DNA of 64,000 nt. It comes from Mytilus edulis (taxonomy: Eukaryota). Shown one piece after another: positions 4,700-35,530 of the stretch. The stretch's first letter is position 1, and every line of letters begins with the position of its first letter. The DNA lies in NCBI RefSeq assembly GCF_963676685.1, contig NC_092353.1:20435307-20499306 (forward strand), in the 5' to 3' direction. The notes beneath the pieces are model-generated. The model made no database searches. It had not been told where the DNA came from and saw nothing but the letters and a program-made list of their open reading frames with translations. A program made the translations under genes and the position numbers.

Positions 4700-5090
4700 G
4701 ATTTTTATAGTTCGTTCTTATGTTGTACTGTTATACCACTGTCCCAGGTTAGGGGAGGGTTGGGATCCCGCTAACATGTTTAACCCTGCCACATTATTTA
4801 TGTATGTGCCTGTCCCAAGTCAGGAGCCTGTAATTCAGTGGTTGTCGTTTGTTTATGTGTTACTTATTCGTTTTTCGTTCGTTTGTTTTTACATAAATAA
4901 GGCCGTTAGTTTTCTCGTTTGAATTGTTTTACATTGTCTTATCGGGGCCTTTTATAGCTAACTATGCGGTATGGGCTTTGCTCATTGTTGAAGGCCGTAC
5001 GGTGACCTATAGTTGTTAATGTCTGTGTCATTTTGGTCTTTTGTTGATAGTTGTCTCATTGGCAATCATACCACATCTTAGCTCTTAGAC
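4700..5090 (+). repeat. SINE-like interspersed repeat, copy 1 (~350 bp; 3' end ...gttgtctcattggcaatcataccacatct)
   Basis: Homologous copies at 25885-26215, 43690-44050, 54940-55160 (partial) and 62040-62420 (reverse complement); contains an A-box-like gcctgtaattcagtggttg. Confidence 0.7.
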
Positions 5091-6469: not shown

Positions 6470-6900
6470 ATGTATAGATATGAATTTAAAGCAAAGGTCA
6501 ATATCTAGAACGTCAAATTAACCTATGACCTTGACCTCAATTTGAAGGTCACAAACTGAGGATATCAAATCAAAAGACCCTAGGTCTCTAATACGTATGG
6601 TTAATAAGTTATATCACTTTACACATAATTTTAGATATGATAGGGGCAAAAACTCCCATTCATTGTCTATGCACCCTTTCAACTAAAATTATTAAGTTAC
6701 GACATGTCGCAACTAACAATTTAGTCAAAATAATGCTGATATCTTATACGGTTTCTGGAAATGAGTGGAAATAAGCCTAATTCAAAAATTAGAATATGAC
6801 CTTGACCTTTGACCTTGACCTAATTATTATTTTTTTTGGACCAAGGACCTCAAATCAAAAGATCCTAGGTCTCTATCACTTATGGTTTTCCAGTTTAAAA
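6470..6900. repeat. Two copies of a ~150-bp unit carrying TGACCT direct-repeat arrays (atgaccttgacctttgaccttgacct; aaatcaaaagaYcctaggtctcta)
   Basis: 6480-6620 and 6780-6900 share both blocks. Confidence 0.5.
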
Positions 6901-7436
6901 TACATTTCAAAATTTCAAATACAAAAGGGGAAATAACTCTCATATGGAGCGTTCATATTGCTTGGTCAAAATTGGACAAATCATGCGAAGGATGTAACGA
7001 GCAATTTTATAAAATAAATTTGTCGTAATCTTTTACAGTTGCGAAGGAGTCGTGATCACAAGGAAAACAGTGTTTGGGGAGGTAACTCCTACAAAGTAAA
7101 GTATTCGGTTACGCAGGGTAAATTTCAAAAGCGCATAAATTGTTCGATATCATATACCAAATATCTAAGCGACATATTGCGAAACAAATATTTATTGCAA
7201 GAACAAAATTAGGCAGAAGAGAAAAAAAAATAATCAGACGAAAAACAATACGTCTTTGCACAGAAAAGTGGAAAGACCTAATTACTGTTACAAAGTTTTT
7301 GTACAGGTAATCACCTGTACAAAATAGTAAAATGTACACGACATAAACATTGCGTCTATGTTTATGACACTTATGGTCGTGCACCAAATGAAACCAGTTT
7401 TTATCAACCATTTCTACATTAGCCATTAGGAAATAA

Positions 7437-7530
7437 CTATACCACGTCAGGAATAGGACAGTTGTTTTCCAATCGTTTGATGTGTTTGAGATTTTTATTT
7501 GCCATTTGTTGGAATTCCTGTTTTGAAATC
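7437..7530 (+). repeat. Fragment of interspersed repeat family B (caagtcaggaat...ttgtccattcgtttgatgtgtttgag..tttgattttgccatttg)
   Basis: Matches copies at 22985-23110, 33790-33920, 37010-37100, 57500-57600 and rc 47130-47310. Confidence 0.5.
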
Positions 7531-7545
7531 TTCCTAGGCAGGCGC

Positions 7546-7693
7546 GGATCCAGCCATTTTAAAAAGGGGGGGGGGGGGGTCCCAACCCAGAGTAAAGGGG
7601 GGGGGTCCAAATATATGCTCCAATTCAAATGCATTGATCGGCCAAAAAAAGGGGGGTTCCAACCCCCGGAACCCCCTCTGGATCCGCCACTGT
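7546..7693. repeat. Palindromic G-run MITE-like element with termini aggcgcggatccag ... ctggatccgccact
   Basis: 11-12-bp inverted termini GGCGGATCCAG enclose three poly-G tracts; a related terminus, cagtggcggattcagagggggg, occurs at 26881. Confidence 0.5.
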
Positions 7694-8439
7694 TAGGAAC
7701 CTTGGTATTTTTGTCATCTTACTTTTTTACTTGCAGTTTGTCTTTCGCCCCTCTTTTGTCATTTCACATGTTAAGCTGTTTGTTGGTTGCATATGATGTC
7801 TTTGCTCTAAATCTATCCGAATCTACTTTATGTTGAAATCTTGGAAAACAATTTATCAATTTGAGTTAGAAGTGATTATAATTTATAAGATGTTATTTTC
7901 ATTTCTAGCTCTCGTCAAAATACATGTTTAGAGTTCTAGTTTCCTGCTGAATGTCGGTCGTTCTCTACTGGTATTCCGACAAATCTGAACCTCATGATAC
8001 CACCAATTCATCTGAAAGTCCCGTTGAATAGTAAGAATAAAGCAATACAACTGCTGCTAAGCTTTTAACTAACGAGAGTATAATCAACTTGATAACATTT
8101 TTTACTTACATTATCCGTTTATAAATTCATAAATTATTAAGTAACTAAGATTCCATCTCCCGCGGGCAAATTTGACCTTAAACAGTCATAAAGCACATAC
8201 CATTATAGGTAGTAATAAATCCTTGGCTCTCCATTCTTTTCTATTTGAAAATTCCCGATAGAGATGAAAAGATTAGTAAGAACCACTTTTAGAAGTTTTT
8301 ATTTTCATAGTATACAAATATATTCAATTCAGGTTTAAACAAAAATATCGAAATATATGATATAAACTAAAGATATATGAATACAAATACTACAATCACT
8401 TTATAATCCAGGTCAAAATTTTTAATTTGCACATTATTT

Positions 8440-9600
8440 TAATTCACAAACTCTTTTATTATATATATCTTTATTCTCATAAAGCCAATGCATTACATCG
8501 GTACAGAGATAACAGATACAACAATAAATATTTACAATATGTACAAAACAAGCGAGAGAGGTTACAAAAGTTACAAGCCAGGAGTACAAACACTAGTATT
8601 TATATTTTTTATAAAAGAACAAAGCTTCTTCAGAACTGGTTTTCTTGTACTTGACATAAGTTCAGAGAATTTAACTGTATTTTGCCGTTTTGTAAAATAT
8701 TCAGTTAAAAACTCTTTGCGTTTTTGATGGAAAAAATTGCATTCAAATATAAAATGATATTCGTCACCTATTTGTCGAATGTTACATAGACTGCAAAAGC
8801 GGTTTTCTCTGATCACGTTTTGCCATCATCCTGTTTCAATCGGCAGCTTAGTATTAGTCGTTCTAAATCGACAAAAAACAATAGCGTCTTTGAAGTCCAA
8901 AATATTAAAATATTCTTCGAATTCCAAGTTTTTCTTAAAAATTTTGTAGTTAATACCTTTTGGTGAATTTTGAATGAGGGAATTCCAGTTGTGAAAATAT
9001 TGATCTAGCAATCTCTGCTTTATAACAGTTTTTAACCATTCTTTATTAACAAAATTTTGTGACTCCCATATGTATGAGAAACCACAATCTTGAAATATTT
9101 TTTGTATAAACAGGATCCATTTTATCTGGACATTATGGTGCTCGTTCATATGACGAGAAAGTTGATATAATATGAAGGAAAACTTTGCTTGTTTACCGGA
9201 TATCAAATTTGCCCAGAATAGTACTGTTCGAACTTTAATATCTATTTCGATCGGATGACGACCTAGTTCCCCGTAAACCATATAATTTGGCGTTGAGGAT
9301 TTCAAGTTTAAAAGAATTTTACAAAATTTTAAATGAATCTTTTCCAGGATATCATTATTACCAAAGCCCCATATTTCGCACCCATACAATAGAATGGGCT
9401 AAAGCCTTGATCATTTTGTCAAAAAGGTCAAGCTGACATTTAACAGAAAGCTGATACATCCTTCCTATTTTCAGGACTTCGTACATGGCTTTTAAGGCCT
9501 TATCGGATAAATATTTTTTAGTCATATTAAAGTTTCCTGTTTTAGTAAAAACAATACCCAAATAGTTAAACTGCTTTACTAAACCATTTTAAAGAGGTTA
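8440..9600 (-). mobile_element. Degraded 5'-truncated non-LTR (LINE) retrotransposon, 3' portion: RT C-terminal region plus a C-terminal Cys/His motif
   Basis: Three broken ORFs (9358-9561, 8826-9389, 8571-8816). MYGCEIWG...KFCKILL aligns with TLYGCEVWG...IKFIKEIL of the intact RT ORF at 58918-60771; CSLCN..GDEYHFIFEC resembles CLSCN..EDEYHFFSIC. Frames are disrupted. Confidence 0.7.
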
Positions 9601-10189
9601 TTTTAGATAGAAAATCTTGCTCTTGCCGAAGAATAAATAAAATATGTTTCACGTTCAAATACATATTTCAAATCTGGACTTCAGATATGTGTATCAAGAC
9701 AACCTCGTTATTCCGATACACCCATGTTACGACATACTTTTATTCAACAGTCTGATATATGAAGACAAGGGTTAATAGTTGTGTCATAAGAATGTCAACT
9801 TGTAGAGTTTAATCAATGTTCCAGAAAAAAGAACCATTTATTTATTTCAAAATTCAAAACTAGAAAACCGAGCAGCTCATTTGTCGTCCTGAATATGCAT
9901 GACATTTTTGGCTACTTGATTTACCATTGTTTAAACAAGGCAAAGTCAGTGACTTGCTATTGGGAAACCAAACAGGCCTTTGAAACTGCGATGCTATTTG
10001 TCTCAGATATGACGATTCTATGACAGTGTCGTGGGAACTAAAACATGGAACAGAACCTATTTCAAAATATAAATTGCCAAAATGTGTTGATGACGCTTTT
10101 TAAATAATTTACGTCCATGTCTACTCCTTCTAAAATTGTAATAACTGTGTTTGAATACTAACATCAAAGTTTTAAAAGAGATCAAAGTC

Positions 10190-10700
10190 GAAATTTCGAT
10201 TGTAAAAAAAAATCGAAATTTTGAGTTTACAAAAAGTCGAAATTTTGAGTTTAAAATAAGTTGAAATTTCGAGTTTAAAATAAGTCGAAATTTTGAGTTT
10301 TATAAAAGTAGAAATTTTGAGTTTAAAAAAAGTCTTAATTTCGAGTTTAAAGCGAAAATTTCGACTTTTTGTAAGTCGAAATTTCGAGTTTCAAAAAAAG
10401 TCAATATTTCGACTTTTCAAAAAGTCGAAATTTTGAGTTTTATAAAAGTCGAAATTTTGAGTTTTTAAAAAGTCGAAATTTCGAGTTTAAAGCGAAAATT
10501 TCGACTTTTTGTAAGTCGAAATTTCGAGTTTCAAAAAAGTCAATATTTCGACTTTTCAAAAAGTCGAAATTTCAAGATTTTTGAAAGTCAAAATTTCAAA
10601 TTGATGTCAAAATTACGAGATTTGAAAAGTCAAAATTTCAAGTTAAAGTCAAAATTTCGAGATTTGAAAAGTCAAAATTTCGACTTTGAAAAAAAAGTTC
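10190..10700. repeat. Minisatellite of ~31-bp units (aagtcgaaatttcgagtttaaa) with a ~120-bp higher-order duplication
   Basis: The unit contains the palindrome tcgaaatttcga; 10340-10460 is nearly identical to 10460-10580. Confidence 0.85.
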
Positions 10701-11439
10701 ACTGCCAATTTAATTTTTTCTATGTCCCTAATACGCTTCCGTAGATTGATGATGTGTTTTGACATGGAATTTTGATATTCAGCAAAAAAGCTGCAAATTA
10801 GAAAAAAGGTTTGTATATTTTGTTTAAAAATAATGCATATTGAAATAAATAATTAATTTTTAATTCAATTATACTTAACTTTTACATTTTAATTAACGTT
10901 TTTAAAATTGATATTATAACATAACATAATTATTTACGGTACAATTGCTTTTTTATTAAACCTGTTTCCTAAGAGAAAAATATTTAAAAAGATAATAAAT
11001 TAAATATGTTTGTATCTTTCTAAATTTCATTAGTAACAATAAGCGCATGTTTTTTGTTTGTTTTTGCAGTCGCCTCTATATTATTTGAGACCAGAAAAAA
11101 ATAAAAAAGAAAAAAAAAATGTATGCCTATATATAGGTATTATTTGGTAAGTTTATACGGAAAAGTAATATATTTAAAAATGAATCAATTTTTTAATGTA
11201 ACATACAAATTCAGTATCTTAAATACAAAATATAAATCGTAACATATGACTGTTTTTTAAAGATAAATAGGCTGCATAAGTATGTAACAAAATATATATC
11301 TATTTACTATTTTAAGCATTTCGAATACAAAACACTTGTACACGCTTATCTCAAATATATATACAAAAATTATGTAACATTTAATCTAATAATACTAGAT
11401 TATGTTTTAAGGAAAAAAGTTTGAATGAAAATATCTGCA

Positions 11440-11830
11440 TTACATTTCGTACCTGTTGTAGATATGAAAAAAATATGGCAGACAAACAGTGGTCCTCAGA
11501 TGATAACTTGGAGGAAATATTGATACGGAATCAACTATCCAACAGGCTGATGTCACTGTAAACCCTGATACGAAATCAACTATCCAACAGGCTAATGTCA
11601 CTGTAAACCCTGACACGAAATCAACTATCCAACAGGCTAATGTCACTGTAAAGCCTGATACGAAATCAACTATCCAACAGGCTAATGTCACTGTAAAGCC
11701 TGATACGAAATCAACTATCCAACAGGCTAATGTCACTGTAACGCCTGGTACGAAATCAACTATCCAACAGGCTAATGTCACTGTAAACCCTGATACGGAA
11801 TCAACTATCCAACAGCTGATGTCACTGTAA
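11440..11830. repeat. 48-bp tandem repeat, ~8 copies (acgaaatcaactatccaacaggctaatgtcactgtaaaccctgat)
   Basis: Direct reading; the - strand ORF 11440-11781 is just the periodic translation VDFVSGFTVTLACWI x6. Confidence 0.9.
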
Positions 11831-14800
11831 ACCCTGATACGGAATCAACTATGTCACTGAAAGTTATAGAAAAGACGAGAAAAGGTCGTCCCGTAAATGT
11901 AATGGAGATACCTAAGAGATTTACAGCTAAACAGACAGTATCTGCTGCTAAGAAGAAAGATTTACTGAATCTTTGTAAAACTGGTGTTATTCCGAGAGAG
12001 TACAACAGCCTCTACAAAGGATTACAATCTGACAACAAAACACCAAATATACTCCCATATCCGGATTTTGAGGAGGATTAAATTGACTCCGAAAAAGAAG
12101 AATAATGATTAAGGCTGGAAACTGCATCAGTTGTCTTCAAAACAAATACAATCTAACAATCTTGGTTTATCAGTTATATTAATACAACTTAAGAGAATAT
12201 TAGGAAGAAGAACACTTGCGACATTTATAACATTAACTGATATAGTGAATTATGCATTTCATTTTCCATTCACGTAACCTTAGGAAACTCAATGATTGTT
12301 GCTGTGTTATATTTTGTTGTAATCAAGTACATGGAATTATTGTAGTCTAATTGCCACTTATGTCGAATTAAGGAAACATAAGAAAGTTTTCAAAAAGGAA
12401 TATTCTAAAGGGAAAGTTTAAATAAGCCTTTATTCCTCCATTATTATTTCAATTTTGAAATTACTATATTTTGTTTTATTAACAACATCCAATCTTTTTC
12501 TATTAGAACTTTTGTCTTTTCTTCTTTAAGATTCAGTGAAAATGACTTCACACAATACATACATTTATAAATTCAATTTCTTTATGTGTATATAATTTCA
12601 TCATGTGTTTTAGAAAAGAATAGTATTTATTATAAAAATAAAAAGGATCCATTGCCATAAATTCTTTTAAATTAAATGTAACCTTTTAAAACAAAAACAA
12701 AAAAATAATTGGAAAATAATTCGTCAAAAAAAATGATTTTGTTCACTGAATAATTATATATTCTTTTTAATTCACTTTCCGTGGTTACTTTGTGTATAGT
12801 TTTCCCTGTAATTACATCATCTTATATATTATTTACTTTAACTTAACAATGTTTAATTATTTTGAATTTGTTCACAGTATATAATTCAAAACAAATAAAA
12901 AATAATAAGTTATATTAATTCGTTTTTCAAATTCAACAATCTCTTATCGTTTGCAAATGCAATGATGCTTACAAAACAACATTTAGAATATGATATACCA
13001 CACAGGTTTAAATTTGTGACACAAACATCTGTATTACTTTTTAATCATACTTATCCGTTAAACGTTTCAAGTGCAATTATATCTTTTATCTGACAACCAA
13101 TTAGCATCAAATTATAAAAGGATAGTAACTATGTCTATTTTTGCAATCTATGTTAATTTGATACATTTCTGTAGTAAAATAGAATTTACATTTACAGTCA
13201 AACTTTGTATGTCGGTTTCTGAAAAGTCACAACTTTCTAGATACGAGATTGTTGCATTAACCCATCGATTTAATTTGTATTATCCCTTAAAAGACATGTT
13301 TTATGGATTTTTTAAATAGTTTTGATAGTTACTTATTCAAAAATATTATTAGTGGCAGAACGAGATAACATTTAGATAGATGACAATCTTGCTTAATAAG
13401 TGCTTTATAATATTCTTTACTTACATTCTCCGTTTATAAATTCATAAATTATAAAAACATTCAAATGGATCTCCTCTTACATCCTTTCTTGGTCCCATAA
13501 CTGTTGAATAACTAATTACAAAACACATAAATTAGTAGAGTATAAAATGTTTTAACCAACTGCCCCTACATTTGTTTCACTCACAGGGTTTACATATAAT
13601 TGACATGTTGTACGTTAATTGAATAGAAAAGTGTCTATCTTTTTTTCTACCGTTGGTAAGCGCTAGATTTTATTGCTGCAGGCATTTTGATATCAAATTG
13701 GAATGTGTTCCTGATTTCATGTGTCAGCTGCTTTTCATTCCTGATAACGAGATGTGCTGATAACACGGTCAATTAGATCATTTCACATTTAAGTAATAGG
13801 TTTTGCTTTTGCTTTTAAATACTTGACAAAATTGATCTGACATCCTTCTTTAAATGAAGATTTTTAAAAGTACATGCTTTTTTAACTATGCAATGAAGAT
13901 TTAATGTATCTGCTAACAGGGGTTCAAAATGTATTATGTATTTTTAGTTTCAATGCAAATCGTTATTTCTACATTGAACAACTAAATGTTTTGACCGCTA
14001 CATGTTTATATAAAAGAGCTTATATACTACTTCTATCCCATTAATTCATGCTGTTACTCATAGATAGATTTTGCTATCCTTGATAGGTCCTCATTGGTAC
14101 AAAATAATGCTACAATTTAGTCTGATAGAACAACATTAGATTAAATACAACTTAATATGCAAATAATGCAAATTCTAAGGCAGTTACTATCCCGTAACTC
14201 CCTTGTTATAAGCAGAAACATGAAGCAAACGGAACTTAAAAGAATCTGCAGTTTATAACTCTTGTTTCGTAGCTATATTTTAATAGGTTTTCGGTAACAA
14301 TAATAATTGTGGCAAGTGACAACGAATTCTTAAATAAAAAGAGTATCTACAGTCATCATCATCAATATGATATTTAAAAAAAAACCCATATCTGTATGTT
14401 ATTTCATCTTCACAATGTTTACTGTTGGTATGGAAGGTCTAACAGCATCACTGTCTCGTTATGGTCGTTAATATAACTATGACGCTAAAATGAAATTCAT
14501 ATTGTCGAGATCGAGTCTCTTAAATACAACATGAACACGTTAACAAAAGATGCATTATAATTTATTTGTGTAGGAAAAAAGGATTGGTAATTGTATTGTT
14601 CTTTGCAGGAGATATAACAGCTGCCACATTAATAATTACATTGTTTCAATACACCACATTGGGCTCCATATTTTTATTGATACCAATATTATTTTATGAA
14701 CCTTTTTGAATATTTTTAAATAATTCAAATTCACCTTGAAACATGTATGCATGATTAAGCAACATGCATATTGAATGATATGCGACAGAAAAGCTAATGA

Positions 14801-15339
14801 AGCAACTTGTATTGAGTAAATGTTATGCAGTAAAACTTTATAATCCGTCTAATAGTCACAGGGCTCCACATATTGCAAACTATCATTTTACTAGTAAATA
14901 TCAAATATTAAAACCATCATTAGAATCATTCGAAAGAATAAAACACAATGTCAAAAATAATTGATTTTAATGAGTTGAATATTGTTAACAGTTGCCATGT
15001 GTGCAACTAACAGTGCTATGGTTAAATATGATACTCCTGCATGGGCAAATATAATTAAGACAACGCACAGACAACTCCCTACAATAACACTGAAAACCAA
15101 TTTGAGTAACTAACTTTCTAAAACCTGGATCTTTGAATAAAATGGGAAAATATCATTACATAAAATGTAGTATGCTCAATGAAATTGACCCTTTTCAGTT
15201 ATTGAAATATTTAATTGTTGCACTATGTCTACAAATATGAACCATCGTATTTTATTTTAGGTCGTCTTGCTTACATAAAATACAGGTAAGTATGAACATC
15301 ATATATTGGAAGAAAAGAATTAAAGCTAAAAAACTCTCG

Positions 15340-15700
15340 TAATTTACTGTCGATATGCACGTCTACATAGTATGTCCTTAATATCTAAAAAGGTTTCATG
15401 AAATTCTGTTGTGTGGTTTCAGAGGAGTTGCGATGACAAACTGTTGCAGTAGTATATTTAGGCAAATAAGTTTAAAGGGGCGTAACCTCTAGAAAAAAAA
15501 TTGTATCGTAATTTCCTGTCGATATGCACATCTACATAGTATGTCCTTATTATCGACAAAGTTTCATGAAATTCTGTTGTGTGATTTCAGAGGAGTTGCG
15601 ATGACAAACTGTTGCAGTAGTATATTGGGGCAAATAAGTTCAAAGGGGATTAACTCCTAGAAAAAAATTGAATCATAATTTCCATAGTATGTCCTTATTA
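15340..15700. repeat. ~188-bp tandem duplication, ~2.3 copies
   Basis: 15340-15527 is near-identical to 15528-15700 (tttcatgaaattctgttgtgtg.tttcagaggagttgcgatgacaaactgttgcagtagtatat). Confidence 0.8.
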
Positions 15701-16065
15701 TCTAAAAACTCCTCTGAAACCATACAAAGTCAGAAATATTTGTGATATGACGTATAAATGTAATGTTTTGTACTTCCTGAATTTGTTTTTGAAACAATCT
15801 TTTTTCCACAGAAAATGCCAATTTTTGAGAAAATATCCAAATTACCGTTATCGATCCGGGTCTTATACGCTTTCGCATGCTCAGTCGACGTACTGCCCGC
15901 AGAATTTAACTTTATATATGAATAATATAGGACAATGGAGTAGATTAAAAATTACACCATTTCCGGCCCTTTTGTTTTCCACATAATTAATATTCCCAAT
16001 AATTAAAAAGTTGCGGGTCGAATCCGATACCGATTCCAATAGTATATTTCACATAATTACCTGAT

Positions 16066-16074
16066 CCCTGTTAC
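16066..16074. repeat. Left 9-bp target-site duplication CCCTGTTAC of the FLYWCH element
   Basis: Identical 9-mer at 17188-17196, immediately outside the inverted termini. Confidence 0.6.
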
Positions 16075-17187
16075 CGGTGCTTTTCATTTGCGCCAATTGG
16101 CATTTCATTTGCGCCAAAAAAATCTTTCATTTGCGCCACAAACCATATTTCATTTGCGCCAAAAACTAAATCTTTCATTTGCGCCAATATTACAGGTAAG
16201 TACAGGTAAATACAGGTAAATACAGGTAATAATAGTATAAAACATAAAAAATTTCAAAAAGTCTTTCAATAATGAAGAATCATATTCCACTGAGAAATCA
16301 GTTATCATAAAATCATGTTAAAACCTGAATACAACCGAAAAGAAAGCACTATACACTGGAGTACATTATTGAGACATTTGTTAGCACTATAGTAAAGTTA
16401 CAAGTCTGTTCTGGCACAAAATTTATAAGCAACGGTCTTGATGTAGTCATGCCTTGAAATTTCCCCATGCCATGTTTCTCCATAAGAAAGTGAGTTTTCT
16501 CTTTCTCCCATCGTCGAACTGCAGCCGGTGTGTCCATAGATCTCATTTTGATGTATGTAGTAGCCTGAATCTTCTTTACAACGTCAACATAAATAAACAT
16601 GTTTGGATGTTTTGAATAAAATTGTTCATTAAAATGTGCATGGAATGACTCCGAACTCTGACTCTGAGTTGTTGAGATTCTACTTTCTTCTTTATTCCAT
16701 GGTTGTGCTCGTTTAAAGTTTTTATAATTGTTTTGCTGTCCGTATCAGTCGTAATCCTGGCTTTACAGGTTTTTTCGGTACACCTGATGGATTTTTCTCC
16801 ATTTTTTAAAACGCTTGATAACCTATATATGTGGTCATCAAATATCACAGAATTCTTCCCTCTGTTTGTCTCAGATTTGACTATGTCCACCTTGACACCT
16901 CACACTGGACTGGTCATGTGAACACTATATATATAATTATAACCTTAGTGACTCTCAGTTTTGTAAATAGAAATGAGTATGAACTCACACATATAACCAA
17001 GGGGGAGTTATGTACAAACAGAAAACAAAATAAATCGTAAATAATATTTATCTTTTCCGTTATATTACCTGTCATACCTGTAAAATGGCGCAAATGAAGG
17101 GTTTTCTTTTGGCGCAAATGATATATAACCTTGTGGCGCAAATGAAAGGTTTGATTTTTTTTTAAATTGGCGCAAATGAAATGCGCC
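16075..17187. mobile_element. ~1.1-kb non-autonomous DNA transposon with inverted repeats, likely MULE-related; ~23-bp imperfect terminal inverted repeats plus subterminal repeat arrays, carrying a FLYWCH zinc-finger ORF
   Basis: Left terminus cGGTGCTTTTCATTTGCGCCAATT matches rc of the right terminus GGCGCATTTCATTTGCGCCAATT. Five TTCATTTGCGCCA and four TACAGGTAA repeats at 16081-16240 are mirrored by TGGCGCAAATGAA and acctgt repeats at 17040-17187. Flanked by a perfect 9-bp direct repeat. Confidence 0.6.
16576..16890 (-). CDS. FLYWCH-type zinc-finger domain ORF (…RGKNSVIFDDHIYRLSSVLKNGEKSIRCTEKTCKARITTDTDSKTIIKTLNEHNH…); may continue into ORF 16349-16600
   Basis: Matches the FLYWCH pattern F/V..s.RGk..l..dgy.Y......g...(W/R)C....C.aR........i......HNH. 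Confidence 0.55.
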   Translation of the reverse strand: MDIVKSETNRGKNSVIFDDHIYRLSSVLKNGEKSIRCTEKTCKARITTDTDSKTIIKTLNEHNHGIKKKVESQQLRVRVRSHSMHILMNNFIQNIQTCLFMLTL

Positions 17188-17196
17188 CCCTGTTAC
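17188..17196. repeat. Right 9-bp target-site duplication CCCTGTTAC
   Basis: Direct repeat of 16066-16074. Confidence 0.6.
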
Positions 17197-17214
17197 ATAA
17201 TCTGTACATTCCGC

Positions 17215-17700
17215 CTCTGTCAGGCGCACACCAAACGGTGTATTGAGGATTTGCTATTAAGGGGGCTCCTTGGTATAAATCAATTTTTTTTTCTAATATA
17301 GGATTTCGCTATATTTTTTTTATAAATGAACTTTATCATATACTTAAAGGAAAAATGAAATAAAAAGATGGAGTCACCGTTCATTTAAGCTCACAATCTG
17401 CCTCTGGAAGAAGCATACATTTTTGTTAATGTCCTTTTTTTCTGTTGAACTAATAGGAGAAATAGATGTAATATCGAAATAAAAAAATAACCTAATTACA
17501 GAAATTGCTTAAATTTTACAACTATTTAGTTTATGTACAGCTTATTTGAAAACAATAATAAAAAATATAGGTCACCGTTGAGTTAAAAAAAGTTATTTCA
17601 AATTTATGGCATTTTTGCACCAAAGAGAGATAATTTGGAGCTTTTTCAATGATATAAACATTTTAAAAGTCATCTGGGGCCAAACTGAATAAATTTTTTG
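17215..17700 (-). repeat. Copy B of the ~520-bp interspersed repeat, inverted relative to 180-720
   Basis: See 180-720; lies immediately next to the right end of the FLYWCH element. Confidence 0.6.
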
Positions 17701-23829: not shown

Positions 23830-23832
23830 CAT
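23830..23832. repeat. Candidate 3-bp target-site duplication CAT, left side (repeated at 30444-30446)
   Basis: CAT directly abuts both terminal inverted repeats if they are taken as TAAGCCYCAG...; if the inverted repeat is taken to start at GCC instead, the flanks are TAA (left) and TTA (right), which are not identical. Confidence 0.4.
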
Positions 23833-23860
23833 TAAGCCCCAGTCACACTGTCACGTTTCG
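23833..23860 (+). repeat. Harbinger left terminal inverted repeat (28 bp)
   Basis: See element entry. Confidence 0.75.
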
Positions 23861-24300
23861 GCTATCCCGTTTTGCTACGTTTTCAAAACGTAGCGAAACG
23901 GCAAAATCCGTAGTGAATCGTATCGATCCGTAGTTAAAACGGCTATATACGTAGTTATGCGTAGATTGATACGTGATCGGTGCCGTTTGTATTGGTCTGC
24001 ACAATACAAACGTGACTAAAAATGAAAACGTAGTACTAACGTAGAAAAGCGCAGTAAAACGTAGAAGGAACGTAGAAATGCGTATTAGAAACGTACCTGA
24101 TACGTTCTAAAACGTATTTGATTATAATCACTAGGTGTTATTACGTTTAAGTACGTATCTGCCACGTTGCATTAGGTTTTTGTACGGTATATTACGCTTC
24201 ATGGTACGCATTAATAGGTTTCATCACGTTATTCTAGGCATTATTACGTATCGATGCGTATTACTACGCATGATTACCTTCTTCTACGCATAATCAAACC
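23861..24300. promoter_or_regulatory. Left subterminal array of short ACGTA/CGTAG/TACGT motifs (more than 25 CGTA-core copies in ~440 bp); presumed binding sites for the element's Myb/MADF-like protein and 5' region of the transposase gene
   Basis: Direct reading (aaacgtagcgaaacgg..ccgtagtgaatcgtatcgatccgtagttaaaacgg..tacgtagttatgcgtag... etc.); mirrored by an equivalent array at 30050-30415. Confidence 0.6.
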
Positions 24301-24356
24301 ACGTGTATCTATATTTCTCGCCATTTGCTAAAATAGTTTGTCAGTCTTACAGCAAG

Positions 24357-25645
24357 ATGGACAGACAACGGATGGAAATGAAAAATTATGGATTATTGAT
24401 ACACAATCATATTTTGAAATTGAGAATGTTGTTAAACAGACACAGACATAAACGAATAGATCACAGAGTGCGCACGGTATGGGTAAGGGATTGGATAGGT
24501 AGAAGATCTCAGTTTGGTTTTTATGCACAGCTGTTGGATGAATTGAGATGTGAAGACACCGTTTCTTTCAAAAACTTTTTGAGAGTTGATCCAACCATGT
24601 TTCAGGAAATTGTTAATAGATTAACACCAAGGCTACAAAAGAAAGACACGTGGTACCGAAAGGCATTGCCAGTTGGTCTTAAAGTAGCAATAACCCTTCG
24701 ATATCTAGCCACAGGAGACAGTTATCATTCACTTATGTATTTATTTAGAGTGCCGCACAACACGATATCCAATCGTGTAGTACAAGTTTGTGAAGCAATT
24801 ATTTCCGAGTATGCTGAAGATGTTATCAACACACCTACGGAAGAAGCTGGATGGCTAGCCATTTCGCAAGAATTTAGTGATATGTGGCAGTTTCATCATG
24901 TGCTAGGTGCACTAGATGAGAAACACGTTGCTATCAAATGTCCGGCTGGTGGTGGTTCTAAATACTATAATATAAAGGATTCCATTCTATAGTTCTAATG
25001 GGCTTAGTAGACGCTAATTATAAATTTAAATGGGTTAACTTTGGCGCACCAGGTGCTTGCTCTGATGCACAAATTTGGAATCAGTCAGACTTAAAAAATC
25101 ATATAATTGATGAGAATATGCACATACCAAAAGCAGAGCCTCTTCCGAATGATGACAAAGACATTCCGTACTTCATCGTTGGTGACGACGCGTTCGCCCT
25201 CAGAAGTTGGCTAATGAAGCCCTTTTCTAGGAGGAACATGACCCTTGAAGAGAGAGTTTTTAACTACAGGCTATCGCGATCACGAAGAGTTGTTGAAAAC
25301 GCATTTGGGATACTTGCAAATCGATTTCAATGCTTACTTTCAACTTTAAAGCAAGAGCCTAACAATGTCGTATCCATTATTCTGGCCTGTGTTTGTCTGC
25401 ACAATATAATGAGGATAAGATATCCAGGTGATCAGAACATTTTGTTAGACAGAGAAGACGAGAACCACCATCTTTTACCTGGAGCTTGGCGAGACGAAAC
25501 AAACCTGAAGGACATTGATGATGTGAAAGATCGCAACTATCCTAGCAGGCAGCAAAACAACAAAGACTGTATCTTAAACACTATTATTCGTCACCTGCAG
25601 GAAAAGTTCCATGGCAAGAACGAATGGTTCAATAACGTTTTTTAA
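24357..25645 (+). pseudogene. HARBI1/PIF-like DDE transposase (DDE_Tnp_4), ~430 codons, split by a frameshift near 24966-24980 (ORF1 GTG-start 24303-24992, ORF2 24998-25645; the homologous reading actually resumes in the second frame at ~24971 with YKGFHSIVLMGLVDANYKF)
   Basis: LPVGLKVAITLRYLATGDSYHSLMYLFRVPHNTIS (HTH region) and HVLGALDEKHVAIKCP...YYN(R/I)KGFHSIVLMGLVDANYKF..FGAPGACSDAQIWNQS...IVGDDAFALRSWLMKPF (catalytic D...D...GD region) match the Harbinger transposase architecture. The tataatataaagg stretch at 24966-24980 looks like a 1-bp indel. Confidence 0.8.
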
Positions 25646-25884
25646 CTGTCTTATCGTAGTATATTTGAATGATAAGTATATGATTTGTACTTTTGTTTAT
25701 TTAACTTTGAATGTATCAAAAAATATTATCATGATACATGTAATTAAACTTTAAGAAATTCTTCTATTAATACCAGTTTTCTGGTCTTTTAAAAACAATG
25801 GCACGCATGGGTCAGCATACTTAGGATAAATTGAAAATTTCATTATTATAACACTAAAACAACAAGACAAATCAAAATAAAAAA

Positions 25885-26215
25885 AAAACTTTGGGATCCC
25901 GCTAACATATTTAACCCCGCCGCATCATGTATGCATGTGCCTGTCCCAAGTCATAAGCCTGTAACTCAGTGGTTGTCGTTTGTTGCTGTGTTACATATTG
26001 TTTTTCGTTCATTTATTTGTACATTAATAAGGCCGTTAGTTTTTTTTTCGTTCGAATTGTTTTACATTTGTCATTTCGGGTCCTCTTATAGCTGACTATG
26101 CGGTATGGACTTTGCTCAATGTTGAAGGCCATACGATGACCCATAGTTGTTAATTTCTGTGTCATTTGGTCTCTTGTGTAGAGTTGTCTCATTGGCAATT
26201 ACACCACATCTTCTT
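25885..26215 (+). repeat. SINE-like interspersed repeat copy nested inside the Harbinger, between the two genes
   Basis: Aligns over >300 bp with 4735-5085 (gggatcccgctaacat.tttaaccc.gcc...cctgtcccaagtca.aagcctgtaa.tcagtggttgtcgtttgtt...gttgtctcattggcaat.acaccacatct). Confidence 0.7.
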
Positions 26216-26382
26216 TTTTTATATTAACCAACAAAATAATCACTCAAACAAAAAAACTTTTAATTTTACAGACAACTGTCATAATACATGAAATAAACAA
26301 ACTGTCTACATAATAGAGTCGTCTTTTAATGTCATTCATATAAAACTTTAAAACACCTGTACGGTTCCTGGTATGAATAAGT

Positions 26383-26676
26383 TTATAATGAGAAAAGTGA
26401 CGATGAGGGTGAATCAACGTTCATTGAATCCGATTGCATTATTACACTGGCAATACTTGATGTTGTAATATCTTGTGCGCATGTAACAGGTGGAGCAGAA
26501 TGTGCTCTTATAGGTTCAATGTCTGCTTGAGTTTTAGACCGGTTTTGCAGAAAGGCGACGTCCTGTCCAGGTAGCTGATATTGCTGCTGCCATGCAGGTA
26601 GGTACCCAACATTACTTGATTGATTACAGAAGCTGCCCATGGGAACATCCAATGCAGATTGTTGACCAGTGAATCC
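26383..26676 (-). CDS. Probable terminal exon of the Harbinger Myb/MADF-like gene (…GFTGQQSALDVPMGSFCNQSSNVGYLPAWQQQYQLPGQDVAFLQNRSKTQADIEPIRAHSAPPV…SL*), followed by an ATTAAA signal ~50 nt downstream
   Basis: Strong acceptor tttttgttgttgcag|GGATTCACTGG near 26677; open to the stop at 26383; attaaaag on the - strand near 26330. Confidence 0.4.
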   Translation of the reverse strand, partial: GFTGQQSALDVPMGSFCNQSSNVGYLPAWQQQYQLPGQDVAFLQNRSKTQADIEPIRAHSAPPVTCAQDITTSSIASVIMQSDSMNVDSPSSSLFSL

Positions 26677-26879
26677 CTGCAACAACAAAAAACATGACCA
26701 TATAAACAAGTTTGATCAACTGTGTATCATCGGCGTTGGAATTAGGTACTAGAACTGGGGTTATGCGGGGTTTCAAGGAAGGATAATTAACATAACTGTA
26801 CGGGGTACTGTTGCCTTGTTCGGTAATGCCGATTTCTTAAAGATAAATAAATCCCAGTTCCTAAGTCAAGGATACACAG

Positions 26880-27060
26880 CAGTGGCGGATTCAGAGGGGG
26901 GGGGGTCATAGAGGGCGTACGCCCCCTTTATTTGTACTTTTTCTCCCCTTTTTACGTGATTTTAGCCAAAAAAAAAACAATTTCGCCTCGCTCCGCTCGC
27001 CAAGAAAATATGGTATACGCCCCTTTCTAAATTCCTGGATCCAATTCTGTAACCATATCG
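26880..27060. repeat. G-run MITE-like fragment (cagtggcggattcagaggggggggg...) related to 7546-7693, sitting in an intron of the MADF-like gene
   Basis: The terminus cagtggcggat(t/c)cagaggggg is shared with the rc of 7675-7693. Confidence 0.45.
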
Positions 27061-27282
27061 TTTTAATATACGTAGTATATATAAATATATATATATATAT
27101 GACCGGACGCATGACAATTTCAAAATGCAGCAATTACCTGAGAGTAATTACAACACGAGGCATCCAAAATATGCAGGTGAACTAAAGAAATGTGTATTTC
27201 GAAACATGTTCTGACCTTTCAGTCTTAACACAATACTAGTACTAGTAAATAATATGTGAATAATATACCTGCAGTTGCTGAA

Positions 27283-27362
27283 GACGTTGTTTATCACGGC
27301 TGCGTAGCTCCTTACTTTCATTTTGAAATCTATCCAATAGATCCATACTCTCTCTTTTAAAC
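27283..27362 (-). CDS. Candidate internal exon (…FKRESMDLLDRFQNESKELRSRDKQRLQQLQ) between acceptor tttttgctttcag| and donor CAG|gtatat
   Basis: Splice-signal reading on the - strand; frame assignment uncertain. Confidence 0.3.
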
Positions 27363-28154
27363 CTGAAAGCAAAAATTTGATATGAATTCATTTAAAAAGT
27401 GAGAATCAATATCATATTAATGTAAACTATAGCTATAATGGATTATTTTTGATACATCTCATTCTTTTGAGAAAGTGTGAGGAAAATAATTGAAAACGAA
27501 TCATACTGAAGTTTGATAAACACCAATCTTTACATATAATACTTTTGCAAAGTTTCATGAAAATCTCTCAATAACTTCAAAGTTTCATTTCAAAACGGCT
27601 TAACTTAAAAACGAAGTTTTCGATATATCTTAACATTAAACTTGTAAAAGCTCTCTGTTTAGTACTCAACAATTGAGCAAAGTGTCAATAAAAATTATGG
27701 ATTCGTTCTTAAATGACTACTTGGTAACAGTCGATGACGGACGGACAGATGGACAAGCGGACGAAAGAGCAGACAGACAGGCAATACGCAGACGAACGGA
27801 CACGCAACCAAACGTTTTTTACGAAAGGTATTACACAATGCCTTGCGACTTCGTGTGGCGGGGTATAAAAACTAATGTCATTACCATAGCGTATCATCGG
27901 ACACAGGATGTTGGTACCAGGCTTAAACGATTTGTATGGTGTTCAATTTTAAAACTGCTACAGTACATCAAAAAGTTGTTGCACTGCACCGTGGAGTTAT
28001 GTTTTTCCTCCTAAAAAATCAGAATAGACCCTCTGCTCGATGATACACGATTTTTATATAGCGTATTCGGCCGTGTATAGTACACATTCATCAAGTAACA
28101 AAACATTAACATACAAAAGCATAGCATACCTCCCCCACAATCTGTCGTCAATAC

Positions 28155-28390
28155 CTGGAAGAATGCTGACCATCCAATGTCCCCAGTTCTGCCTTTCGGG
28201 TGTCATGTCCGCGTGACTAGCCAGCTTAGCCTGCACTTGTTTCTGTAATTCAGAAGACTGTTTTATTGCTTCCTGGATGTCTTTTTCAACTGGAGATTGC
28301 ATCTTCTGGTATTTCTTTTTTGTTTTTGTTGTAACTATAGGAGAGGGAATATCTATTGTGCTGGACGTCTCCTCAAGATTACATTGCGAT
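28155..28390 (-). CDS. Candidate exon 4 of the MADF-like gene (SQCNLEETSSTIDIPSPIVTTKTKKKYQKMQSPVEKDIQEAIKQSSELQKQVQAKLASHADMTPERQNWGHWMVSILP), acceptor ttttttttctttag|, donor CCAG|gtattg
   Basis: Open frame between canonical splice signals; joins in frame with the acidic frame of the 100-nt exon 3 (..GAAAGAAG|A TCG CAA..). Confidence 0.45.
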
Positions 28391-28691
28391 CTAAAGAAAA
28401 AAAAACCGATGAAAGTTGTATTTTTTGTTCTAAACAATACAAGAAGACACCCTATCTCTACTACTACGGTGGGTTTTGAACGACCTTGACTGGCTTGACA
28501 CCCTATCTCATAACAAGAAAACAAGAAATGCCGGAAGCACAATCAATCCGATACAATTACTTTTAACTGAAAAGTATTTACAAATGTAAGTGTGATGGAC
28601 GGACGGACGGACCAAAACATTATAATAAGTCCTGATGTGAAGATATAGGTTCAATTTAACTAATTATACAAAGAAGTAAATGGTTACTGAC

Positions 28692-28791
28692 CTTCTTTCA
28701 TCGTCTTCTTTACTTTCCCCTTCGTCCTCATGTTCACTGGGAGAATCGACGCAAGCATCTGTTCCGTATTTGCCTTGAGTTTCCCTTTCAG
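28692..28791 (-). CDS. Candidate 100-nt exon 3 (acidic frame ERETQGKYGTDACVDSPSEHEDEGESKEDDER), acceptor atatttcag|CTGAAAGG, donor GAAAGAAG|gtcagt
   Basis: Consensus splice signals at both ends; acidic linkers of this kind are typical downstream of MADF domains. Confidence 0.45.
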
Positions 28792-29020
28792 CTGAAATAT
28801 TCAGACATAATCGGAACATTATTTATGTATTCGTACAAGATATATCGAGATAAAGTCAAACATTTGAAATGAAACAGCTGTAAAATGAATTTCGTAGAAT
28901 CAGAACATTAAGTATCATTTAGAAAAAGAAAAAAGGTACGGGAATTCAACAAAGGAAATAACAATAAAAGGTAAAAAAAGTGAACTGAAATATTAAGTAA
29001 TAGAAAACTGTATTGCACAC

Positions 29021-29277
29021 GTTTATTCCTCCTCTGGTTTCTATTCTGGCAATATGTGGACCCAAGAAGCCAAATTTTTCTTTGATCCATTTGTCTCTTT
29101 GAGTATCATCTTTTCTGCCTGAACCAGATTTATTGCCTTCTCGTGTCAGTCTTCCGAGCTGAGATCTCATTGACTCAACCCATGTCCTGAGAGTCTTCCA
29201 ATCCTCTACCCCTAGCTCATTAGCTTTTGCTTGCCATCGTGTATTTTTGAGAGCAGTATCTTTGTACTGATAATGAG
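29021..29277 (-). CDS. Exon 2 of the MADF-like gene, encoding the body of the MADF domain (AHYQYKDTALKNTRWQAKANELGVEDWKTLRTWVESMRSQLGRLTREGNKSGSGRKDDTQRDKWIKEKFGFLGPHI...)
   Basis: Acceptor ttttttttcttctctttcag|CTCATTATCAG at ~29278; W...W...LR..W......G......K...W..F.FL is the MADF signature; the 3' donor is uncertain (AAC|gtgtgc near 29020, or earlier). Confidence 0.65.
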
Positions 29278-29425
29278 CTGAAAGAGAAGAAAAAAATCGG
29301 TCACATTGATTTTTAAATATAAAGACCATGCTGTAAGTTTATCTATGTCTACTGGTGGGGTTAACATCTTTTGACATTTCTTCTCCGTATTAATATTTTA
29401 AATTATAGCAAATAAATACATGTAC

Positions 29426-29651
29426 CTTTGTTGTATAGAGGTTCGTTTTCTCTATACCAATCTGCCAACTCATCCTGCTTTTCTTGTGGTATTTCTAATG
29501 GCTTGCTTCTTTTGCGCTTCTCTTTATTGGTATTAGCTGGCTGTTCAGTATCACTATTTTGTGTTTGCTCATTTGTTTCTTGTGTATTAGTTGTTTCAGT
29601 CTCAGGCGCCACACTAACTATGCGGCCCCTTCCTCTGCCTCTGGTCCTCAT
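29426..29651 (-). CDS. Exon 1 of the MADF-like gene (MRTRGRGRGR...KEKRKRSKPLEIPQEKQDELADWYRENEPLYNK), donor AAAG|gtacat; the basic and RG-rich N-terminus looks like a nuclear localisation signal
   Basis: ATG at 29651; DELADWYRENEPLYNK is the start of the MADF domain, which continues in frame into exon 2 (phase 1, G|CT = Ala). Confidence 0.65.
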
Positions 29652-30049
29652 CAGAACGGTCTGGTTTGAAACACACTAAAAGATAAAATCAAATACCGGT
29701 AAGAGGAAAATTGGATTTAAAACGGACAATGTGCAACGTAGAATATTTCAAAAGAGCAATTATTATAAAAGGGAAAGCATTGACAATGTTCTAACCAAAG
29801 CTTTAAATGTTTTTTCATGTTTCATGTATCCACTCAACAAAAATCTTATCTGAAAGAAAAAAACAATAAAATCTTTCTTTTGAGTACTAAATTTTTAGAC
29901 CATAAAATGGGAACAAAATAATTTAATTACAATGACAGATGTATTAGTAATTATAAAGTGTACCTCTATTAATGTCTCCAGATTTGTTTTAGTTACTCTG
30001 CTCCCTCTTTACATCTCTGTCCTTTCTAAATTTTATTGAATAATGATGC

Positions 30050-30415
30050 CGTTTCACGATAAGTGATCACAGCGTAGTGACACGTGATACTGCGCGCAAT
30101 AAACTTGCTAAATCGTAGGAAATCGTGCAAAAGCGTACTTGAACCGATTTAGAAACGTACTAAACCCTAGTAATACGTAGTGAAACGTAGTAAACCGTAG
30201 TAAAACGTAGTTTATACGTACTGAAGCGTATTAAAACCTAGTAGAACGTACCCCTTGTAGTTATAAAAAAACCTAGCAAATCGTAACAAAACGAAACAAT
30301 ACGTAGAAGAACGTATCAAAACGTGGCGTAAACCTAGTTAAACGTACGGACCGTTAAAAATGACAAAAAAATGCCATGAAACGTAGCATTTCTACACGTA
30401 CTAAAACCTAGCTGT
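30050..30415. promoter_or_regulatory. Right subterminal ACGTA/CGTAG motif array of the Harbinger, upstream of the MADF-like gene
   Basis: aatcgtaggaaatcgtg..agcgtacttg..aaacgtactaaaccctagtaatacgtagtgaaacgtagtaaaccgtagtaaaacgtagtttatacgtactgaagcgtatt... etc. Confidence 0.6.
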
Positions 30416-30443
30416 CGAAACGTGACAGTGTGACTGAGGCTTA
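30416..30443 (-). repeat. Harbinger right terminal inverted repeat
   Basis: Reverse complement = TAAGCCTCAGTCACACTGTCACGTTTCG. Confidence 0.75.
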
Positions 30444-30454
30444 CATAAAAGTAT

Positions 30455-31730
30455 CGTATATATGTAACCCCCCAAACGTGTCTGATTCCCCCAAACGTGT
30501 CCACATCGACGTCACTGAACTGCAAAGACATGTCTAGTTGTCAAAGGGCGCTAAAGCGTGTCATTTGTATAAACGCTCAAACGTGTCCATTTTTTAATTA
30601 ACCCCCAGTCGTGTCCAATCCCCCAAACGTGTCCATACCAAGCTTTTTTTTTATTTTACTGGAACTATCATTCGTGTTCATATTATAAAAACGTAGGTTA
30701 TTTGTGTGTGGTTTTTTTTATTTTTGTCATTGTATACTCATTTTACGATCTTTTACTATTTCATTAAAAGATCAAAATAAATTACTTAAATTCTTTTTCT
30801 ATGCCCATTAAAATGTTTGTAGCATTTAACTCGTTATAATGTGCCATACTTTGTATTTTGGAAGGCAAATTTTTTTTTAATTTCTGCAACTTTTATTTGA
30901 AACAGCCTCTATATTACATAACAGACATTGAAGTAGTTTCTTACTGAAATCATAAACAAATCGGTCTTTACTCGCATTTATTTTTCTTTAGATTAAAATC
31001 CAAACTAGTGGTCATCCCAAATAACCGTAAAAGTTAATGCCCAATTTTAAATTCCCGGTTTGATAATATAACCTATTTACAGTATATATCGTTAATATGA
31101 TATCGTTCAAAAAATGAATGAAATATTTGGCACTGGACGTTATGTCTCTTGTTCGTGTGTCTTTAGTGACGCTCGTTACCTATTTATTAAAATTAGAACT
31201 GTTAAAAAAAGATGGGAGGTCAATTCGACTGAAAGCCCACCGTGCAATATTCTGATTAATATAAAAGGCATCATCGGAGTTTATTAGTATAAAAGAATTT
31301 ACATAGTAAACGATTAATTCAACTATACTAGAATTATTTGCATGTTCGCTTTAAATTAGTATGAAATAATGAAGCAAATTAGGTCAAAAGTTAATGCATA
31401 TGTTACATATTAAATTTTCAGTAATGATAATCATTACAAACCGGCATTGAACAAGTTAATGTTAATAAATTACCACTTCATCACCTGTGTCCCCATCATA
31501 GAACTGCCGTGAACGTTATTGATGTCGCATTTAGGACATGTATTTGCGCAAAAGACACGAGACGTTCTGGCGTTTAAAAGTGGACACGTTTGGGCGAATT
31601 ACAATAGTATCGGGCATGTTTGGGGGCCCGGGTTCTGAAATCGGACACGTTTGGGGAATATTGAATATTATGGACACGTTTGGGGGGAAGGACACGTATG
31701 GGAGTGTTACATATATATATATATATATAT
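30455..31730. mobile_element. MITE-like element with inverted subterminal arrays (CCCAAACGTGTCC)n at 30470-30640 and (GGACACGTTTGGG)n at 31545-31700, and TA-rich termini (gttacatatata); it directly abuts the Harbinger right end
   Basis: At least five copies of the 13-mer on each side, in opposite orientation; no coding capacity between them. Confidence 0.5.
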
Positions 31731-34427: not shown

Positions 34428-34570
34428 TATAAGAAGATGTTGTATGAGTGCCAGTGAGACAACTCTTCATCCAAGTCACAATTTATAAAAGTAAACAATT
34501 ACAGGTCAAAGTACGGCCTTCAACACGGAGCCTTGGCTCACACTCAACAACACACTATAAAAAATCCCAG
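34428..34570 (-). repeat. SINE-like variant subfamily fragment (agatgttgtatgagtgccagtgagacaactcttcatccaagtcacaatt...acggccttcaacacggagccttggctcaca); fuller copies at 35290-35530 and 57830-58050
   Basis: Mutual similarity across the three copies, and the same architecture as the rc SINE-like copy at 62040-62420. Confidence 0.6.
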
Positions 34571-35289: not shown

Positions 35290-35530
35290 ATATATATATA
35301 TAGGAAGATGTTGTATGAGTGCCAATGAGACAACTCTCCATCCAAGTCACAATTTAAAAAGTAAACCATTATAGGTTAAAGTACGGCCTTCAACACGGAG
35401 CCTTGGCTCACACCGAACAACAAGCTATAAAGGGCCCCAAAATTACTAGTGTAAAACCATTCAAACGGGAAAACCAACGGTCTAATCTATATAAACAAAA
35501 CGAGAAACGAGAAACACGTATATAATACAT
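35290..35530 (-). repeat. SINE-like variant subfamily copy
   Basis: See 34428-34570. Confidence 0.6.

Follow-up and report, generated by a model that had tools for sequence, protein, structure and literature searches.

The closest described relatives of the locus reported here are the zebrafish transposon Harbinger3_DR and the rice elements Ping, Pong, and mPing. In Harbinger3_DR and Ping/Pong, transposition needs two proteins, the transposase plus a Myb-like partner that binds the element ends and interacts with the transposase, and in Harbinger3_DR the Myb-like protein is also needed for nuclear localization of the transposase (PMC2836001). The target site duplication (TSD) of the superfamily is TTA or TAA, and excision is precise (PMC2836001). 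In animal PIF elements the second gene codes for a MADF protein (PMC9710019), and a MADF second gene is likewise described in a preprint (bioRxiv 10.64898/2026.05.26.728016). For bivalves, a curated library holds 58 full-length PIF-Harbinger consensus sequences, with the Mytilus edulis and M. coruscus genomes among those analyzed (Martelossi et al. 2023, PMC10294476), and Harbinger-Snek-like elements as well as horizontal transfer of Harbinger elements involving bivalves and echinoderms have been reported (PMC8437027). We analyzed a 64-kb, AT-rich stretch of the M. edulis genome (contig NC_092353.1, positions 20,435,307 to 20,499,306; about 28–37% GC), which we refer to as the window, and we are highly confident that its positions 23835–30441 represent a single 6.6-kb insertion that belongs to a young Mytilus PIF/Harbinger family.

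The Mytilus element resembles Harbinger3_DR and Ping/Pong/mPing in several features. It likewise combines a DDE_Tnp_4 (IS5-like) transposase with a separate protein of the Myb/SANT/MADF type, and it has short terminal inverted repeats (TIRs), a 3-bp TTA/TAA TSD, and subterminal binding site arrays, which at our locus are candidate sites. The TIR of rice mPing/Ping, GGCCAGTCACAATGG, and the Mytilus TIR have a CCAGTCACA core in common (PMC2836001). Unlike the zebrafish and rice elements, ours resides in a bivalve host, its genes are convergent, its transposase gene is intronless while its second gene has seven exons, and a 335-bp dispersed repeat is nested in the master element. The insect and nematode PIF elements again contain two genes, the second of which codes for a MADF protein in place of a classical Myb or trihelix protein, but they belong to another phylum; here our comparison is one of published descriptions (PMC9710019; bioRxiv 10.64898/2026.05.26.728016). 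The curated bivalve PIF-Harbinger consensus sequences come from the same superfamily and host class as our element.

The Mytilus transposase is at most about 57–63% identical to named relatives outside Mytilus (for example from Saccostrea, and a sea urchin protein called 'HARBI1'), and these nearest matches agree with a marine invertebrate transposase clade. In the vertebrate HARBI1/NAIF1 pair, a homologous transposase fold is again found together with a Myb-like partner. HARBI1 is a single-copy, syntenic gene without TIRs. The Mytilus genes, in contrast, are located inside a multicopy mobile element with TIRs and TSDs.

An initial annotation, made from the sequence of the window, had considered the element to be probably undescribed as a unit. 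We found no paper specifically on this Mytilus Harbinger family in a literature search, but both of its proteins have already been deposited in NCBI and UniProt for three Mytilus species. UniProt calls cluster members 'MADF domain-containing protein' and 'DDE Tnp4 domain-containing protein', NCBI calls others 'putative nuclease HARBI1', and the label 'uncharacterized protein' is also in use for proteins of the family. The family is an ordinary member of a well-known superfamily, and it is new or at least not demonstrably described. For annotation of the genome, the window copy is a textbook Harbinger insertion; it should be treated as a repeat and masked, and its two 'genes' should be left out of host gene counts. 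A by-product of our analysis is a consensus anatomy of the family, consisting of a 26-bp TIR, a TTA TSD, AAACGTAG arrays, and a seven-exon MADF gene model.

Copies, termini, and target site of the element

We located relatives of the two encoded proteins via protein clusters and then fetched the surrounding DNA. In the following, W denotes the window copy, L001–L012 the loci fetched around related proteins, and P-numbers the proteins of these copies. The 90%-identity cluster of the transposase has 24 members, and the clusters of the MADF protein comprise 29 and 10 sequences. Both proteins have their closest relatives in Mytilus galloprovincialis, M. edulis, M. trossulus, and M. coruscus. Nine other insertions were recovered from these four species, one ENA assembly, and one Logan assembly. 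Full-length or near-full-length copies are present in L004, L005 (= L009), L006, L010, L011, and L012, and partial copies in L001, L007, and L008. L002 is an internally deleted copy from M. trossulus, and L003 an 83–85% identical relative from M. coruscus. All others (L001, L004–L008, and L010–L012) are 97–99% identical to W, and the full-length copies are collinear with W over nearly its whole length, without rearrangement. The segment 27450–28100, where the alignment with L001 stops, was considered as an insertion and rejected: the alignment breaks at a run of Ns, a scaffold gap in L001, and the region is collinear in all other copies, including the one from M. coruscus.

The ends of W are defined by an inverted match between 23833–23860 and 30416–30443, which spans 28 nt with one mismatch and has a looser extension to 55 nt at 76%. 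A 21-nt core of this repeat occurs exactly twice in the window, in opposite orientation, where no occurrence is expected by chance. Similarity between the copies starts with AGCCCC and stops with GAGGCT wherever an end survives, and the sequences beyond are unrelated. Common end points together with unrelated flanks rule out a larger repeat as well as segmental duplication. The proposals that other genomic copies would carry the same termini, and that the boundaries are not those of a larger repeat, are thus borne out by nine other insertions in four Mytilus species, between which similarity ends at AGCC... and ...GGCT. The 28-bp TIR with one mismatch of the initial annotation is indeed present as a match; however, the TIR itself is 26 nt long, because the outer TA of the match is part of the duplication. 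The left TIR, AGCCCCAGTCACACTGTCACGTTTCG, maps to 23835–23860 on the plus strand, exactly where inter-copy similarity begins, and is an inverted match to the right TIR at 30416–30441 on the minus strand, which reads AGCCTCAGTCACACTGTCACGTTTCG. The 26-bp TIR of the family is AGCCYCAGTCACACTGTCACGTTTCG, again with one mismatch between the ends. The same C/T mismatch is found in W, L002, L004, L006, L008, and L011, and as it is carried by most copies, the difference between the two TIRs is a family trait rather than a mutation of W.

The sequences immediately outside the TIRs identify the TSD as the canonical 3-bp Harbinger duplication TWA (TTA/TAA). At the left end, the triplet directly before AGCC is TTA in six and TAA in one of seven family copies; in W it is the TTA at 23832–23834. 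At the right end, TTA is found in five and TAA in one of nine copies, and the three exceptions, W, L010, and L011, differ by one T more or less in the T-run of the junction (GGCT-TTA). The junction reads GGCTTTA in L003, L004, L006, L008, and L012, GGCTTA in W, L002, and L010, and GGCTTTTA in L011. A perfect TTA...TTA pair flanks L012. In W, the right TTA at 30441–30443 shares one base, the terminal T, with the TIR, since its junction T-run is one T shorter than in the best copies. The 3-bp flank originally proposed for W was CAT. A CAT/CAT pair is literally present but coincidental, and the same reading fails in L010, where the triplets would be TAT and TGA. A CAT duplication combined with a 28-nt TAAGCC...GGCTTA TIR is rejected by L004, L005, L006, L008, and L012, where the sequence is TAA-AGCC, and by L010, whose outer triplets do not match. 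The TTA duplication would imply an empty site of the form ...GTCCA-TTA-CATAAAAG..., that is, AATGTCTGTCCA-TTA-CATAAAAGTATCG.

Inside the TIRs, each end carries an array of short motifs. The left array (23861–24300) contains AAACGTAG/TACGT-type motifs, including a tandem array detected by Tandem Repeats Finder at 24025–24095. The right array (30040–30415) is made of AAACGTAGTA-type motifs, with 9.7 copies of the 10-bp unit AAACGTAGTA found by the same program at 30153–30250. When the TIRs are included, we count 18 ACGT cores in 23835–24300 (466 bp) and 14 in 30040–30441 (402 bp). This corresponds to 35–39 cores/kb, compared with 2.2–2.3/kb in the interior of the element and in the rest of the window. 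Cores of the motif, which is of the AAACGTAG(T) type, are often spaced by 10–11 or 20–21 bp, and each array measures about 450 bp. The approximately 400-bp subterminal arrays suggested earlier are therefore real at both ends, with an about 16-fold enrichment of ACGT cores in each.

The two genes and their decay in the window copy

No introns interrupt the transposase gene, which occupies 24357–25635 on the plus strand and has 426 codons in intact copies; in W it is broken. After repair of the reading frame, the segment 24357–25645, which had been assigned to a DDE_Tnp_4 (HARBI1-like) transposase, gives a full-profile match to Pfam DDE_Tnp_4 (PF13359; E = 7.4e-30, 104 bits with a cut-off of 24.8, profile positions 2–158 of 158). 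The unrepaired open reading frame (ORF) 24998–25645 alone is detected with E = 2.3e-24, and P0124, the protein of an intact paralog, with E = 6.6e-32. The transposase also matches Plant_tran (PF04827). The repaired product of W is 97% identical to P0001, an intact 426-amino acid protein from M. galloprovincialis. A sequence search of the PDB with the transposase returned nothing significant. By inspection of P0124 within the Pfam-matched region, candidate DDE residues are Asp-187 (in LDGKH), Asp-277 or Asp-278 (VGDDAF), and Glu-314 (VVENAF). In W, the residue beside Asp-187 is mutated from Gly to Glu.

Lesions and private substitutions were called from an alignment of eight copies including W. 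Two 1-nt deletions in the transposase gene, after 24970 and after 25546, are private to W, and the raw frame stops at amino acid 212. The first of these is the frameshift already recognized in the initial annotation. The second had been missed, and because of it the true stop codon is located at 25633–25635 and not at 25645, where it had been placed.

As a side observation, P0024, a transposase 61% identical to the W protein, has been deposited as 'MAG: transposase family protein [Candidatus Thiodiazotropha sp.]'. Most likely, this entry represents bivalve host DNA that was binned into the metagenome-assembled genome of a symbiont. Many of the ENA, JGI, and Logan 'metagenome' matches are probably host contamination as well.

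The second gene lies on the minus strand (26383–30014), convergent with the transposase gene, and encodes a MADF/Myb-like protein in seven exons (30014–29964, 29675–29426, 29277–29021, 28791–28692, 28390–28130, 27362–27269, and 26676–26383), separated by six GT-AG introns. When the corresponding exons of L005, L006, L008, and L010 are joined, their translation is identical to P0138, an annotated 442-amino acid MADF protein. Exons 1 and 2 of W match Pfam MADF_DNA_bdg with 26.1 bits (cut-off 22; profile positions 2–84 of 84), and P0138 matches it with 22.2 bits at the same cut-off, again over the full profile. We detected no relatives of the MADF protein outside Mytilus at E ≤ 1e-5. In L005/L009, L010, and L011, the convergent pair is likewise annotated side by side, and the two genes are adjacent in at least five loci. 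Together with the full-profile MADF match, this adjacency upholds the convergent Myb/MADF-like gene that had been predicted. In W, codon 2 has become a stop through a CAA to TAA change at 30011, the RG-repeat of exon 2 has lost 21 bp in frame at 29625, and a 1-nt deletion at 28768 causes a frameshift in exon 4. All these lesions are private to W.

In total, W carries 47 private substitutions (about 0.7%) and, distributed over both genes, three frameshifts, one nonsense codon, and one in-frame deletion. As both genes contain inactivating lesions, W is a non-autonomous relic with intact ends and two dead genes. The element had initially been described as autonomous, a description that the transposase frame ending at amino acid 212 and the stop at codon 2, frameshift, and deletion of the MADF gene do not allow for W. 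A two-gene PIF/Harbinger element with defined termini, young yet already damaged, is nevertheless what we find: DDE_Tnp_4 and MADF matches, shared termini, and lesions are all present.

Alternative readings, proposed mechanism, and possible activity of the family

Every defining feature of PIF/Harbinger elements that was tested with a verdict was found in the family, and the comparison of copies directly reveals the anatomy of a transposon, its boundaries, and its family membership. We nevertheless considered other explanations for the locus. The relatives bear the NCBI name 'putative nuclease HARBI1', and co-domestication of a PIF transposase and a MADF protein is recurrent in insects (PMC9710019); one could thus think of a domesticated HARBI1-like/MADF (NAIF1-like) host gene pair rather than a transposon. 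In place of single-copy, syntenic genes devoid of TIRs, we found TIRs, subterminal arrays, TWA flanks, many nearly identical copies dispersed over unrelated loci (protein clusters with 24 and 29 + 10 members, nine other insertions), and a pseudogenized W in which both genes are broken, so that domestication is vanishingly unlikely. It is also extremely unlikely that the copies are segmental duplications, haplotigs, or assembly artifacts with duplication breakpoints as their termini. The flanks are wholly different, similarity is bounded by the same inverted repeat bases where ends survive, the flanking trinucleotide is nearly always TTA or TAA, and the copies are found in four species on different chromosomes or contigs. 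This outweighs the observations that several copies are identical over kilobases and that mussel assemblies are heterozygous and fragmented, as illustrated by the scaffold gap in L001.

A different question is whether W could still be autonomous and its frameshifts sequencing errors. All three frameshifts are single-base deletions, two of them in short homopolymer or repeat contexts, and the length of the right-junction T-run varies between assemblies. Such errors would leave unexplained the 47 private substitutions, among them the codon 2 nonsense mutation of the MADF gene and the Gly to Glu change beside the first candidate catalytic aspartate, as well as the 21-bp deletion and several non-coding indels. 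The lesion pattern is genuine decay and not isolated base-calling error, and we judge an autonomous W to be very unlikely. The lack of a clean 3-bp direct repeat around W, unless one nucleotide is adjusted, would fit a neighboring DDE_Tnp_4 group, either ISL2EU-like elements or the Spy group, whose insertions do not duplicate the target. With TWA flanks at 13 of 16 family ends, one perfect TTA pair, a Myb/MADF second gene, a TIR core like that of Ping/mPing, and closest proteins that are all HARBI1-like/PIF-type, however, assignment to either group appears extremely improbable.

Several points weigh against a PIF/Harbinger insertion as we describe it. The Pfam scores behind the MADF assignment are barely above the cut-off (26.1 and 22.2 bits compared with 22), an AlphaFold2 model of the MADF protein calculated from a 3-sequence alignment was unusable (mean predicted local distance difference test score of 37.2), and a PDB sequence search with the MADF region found nothing significant. 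At the right junction W is one T short of a clean TTA plus terminal T, and the CAT/CAT flank, which has a 1/64 probability by chance, is left as a coincidence. An empty pre-insertion site was not retrieved, and the insertion event of W is deduced from the comparison with its paralogs. Finally, that the MADF protein binds the ACGT motifs and that the family is mobile at present are predictions.

For the PIF/Harbinger family, we propose cut-and-paste movement. The MADF/Myb-like protein encoded by gene 2 would bind AAACGTAG-type motifs in the about 450 bp inside each end and bring the DDE transposase encoded by gene 1 to the 26-bp TIRs. The transposase would then excise the element and integrate it at TTA/TAA, duplicating 3 bp. 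The AAACGTAG arrays are accordingly predicted to be, most likely, the binding sites of the MADF protein, and the 26-bp TIRs the cleavage sites. W itself appears to have inserted at TTA, and it has subsequently gained its about 0.7% private substitutions and the lesions in both genes. It is no longer able to make either protein, but with its ends and arrays intact it could be mobilized in trans by intact Mytilus copies. Which protein binds which motif, the requirement for two proteins, and present-day mobility are again points that we infer.

Intact, near-identical paralogs of W do exist. The genes of L005 and L006 are identical to those encoding P0124 and P0138, and L006 in addition has both TIRs and both subterminal arrays. 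L004, L005, L006, and L010 represent separate insertions, found in M. galloprovincialis, in M. edulis, and in an environmental assembly. Over the about 3.3 kb made up of the transposase coding sequence, the spacer, and the MADF exons, they show zero mutual substitutions. W differs from these four copies at 9 of 1279 positions in the transposase coding sequence, 4 of 747 in the spacer, and 6 of 1307 in the MADF exons. Because the intact copies lack mutual substitutions, the family appears to have been active recently, and the data suggest that it amplified very recently. The existence of intact, mutually identical copies makes the family a plausible candidate for an animal Harbinger that is naturally active. 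That the family, as opposed to W, is transposing in living Mytilus populations today is conceivable, but judging from these sequence identities we consider it somewhat doubtful. If true, it would represent a naturally active metazoan Harbinger, which is rare, and might be among the contributors to the extensive presence/absence variation that has been reported in mussel genomes. It could also provide a possible genetic tool for bivalves, with W as a trans-mobilizable non-autonomous passenger.

Nested, truncated, and neighboring elements

In the spacer between the 3' ends of the two genes, W contains a 335-bp dispersed repeat that resembles a short interspersed nuclear element or a miniature inverted-repeat transposable element (MITE) (25891–26225). 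Other copies in the window are located at 4760–5079, 54937–55168, and 62046–62377 (84–87% identical), with degenerate ones at 34431–34525 and 35304–35467 (73–76% identical). The repeat is also found in loci of M. trossulus, M. coruscus, M. edulis, and M. galloprovincialis, and it occupies an identical position in every full-length family copy checked. Being common to every one of these copies, it is a family trait and not a sign of decay in W. On the basis of this shared position, the repeat entered the master element before amplification and is uninformative on the age of W. A possible second nested MITE-like insert, for which the signal is weak, lies in intron 6 of the MADF gene (26880–27060). 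Its 18-nt motif CAGTGGCGGATTCAGAGG/CAGTGGCGGATYCAGAGG at 26880–26897 on the plus strand recurs at 7675–7692 on the minus strand (0 expected by chance) and resembles the terminus of a MITE family. The body of this candidate has no similarity elsewhere, the bodies at the two motif sites do not align, and the candidate is present in all family copies. Of the two nested insertions that had been listed as marks of decay, the one at 25891–26225 can thus be demonstrated and the other depends on the 18-nt motif; both segments are present family-wide.

Two of the more divergent or deleted copies have given rise to unusual gene models. The L002 copy from M. trossulus (7165–11719) is devoid of the part matching window positions 24295–28236, which covers the transposase gene in full and the 3' portion of the MADF gene. 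The copy contains an insertion of ~2 kb, and its left terminus (window 23835–23981) is gone. The protein P0122 annotated from this copy is a truncated MADF product. In L003 from M. coruscus, the gene at 10001–17290 (P0123) joins MADF exons of a truncated Harbinger to downstream exons with a weak PAX match, and this gene model is probably a chimeric misannotation.

Distinct Harbinger-like ends adjoin family copies at a common TTA/TAA in L002 (6925–7164), L006 (~6640–6690), and L008 (8736 and 9540–9570). The abutting termini read AGCCCTAGTCACACTGTC, AGCCCAAGTTAAACTGTCACG, and GCTTCCCCAGTCACACTGTCACG, which suggests several sibling families or MITEs nested into each other's ends.

The flanks of W, at 12–23.8 kb and 30.4–42 kb of the window, contain repeat-like ORFs only and no usable coding ORF. 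Another TIR element, non-autonomous and about 1.26 kb in size, is located at 30457–31717, about 15–20 bp from the right end of the Harbinger insertion. It has TGTAAC... terminal inverted repeats, and its subterminal regions contain CCCAAACGTGTCC in five plus-strand and five minus-strand copies (10 matches compared with 0.35 expected). Further upstream in the window, a 104-amino acid ORF on the minus strand (16576–16890) displays a FLYWCH-type zinc finger-like pattern (…W/Y…C…C…H.H) and is probably part of another transposon-derived sequence.

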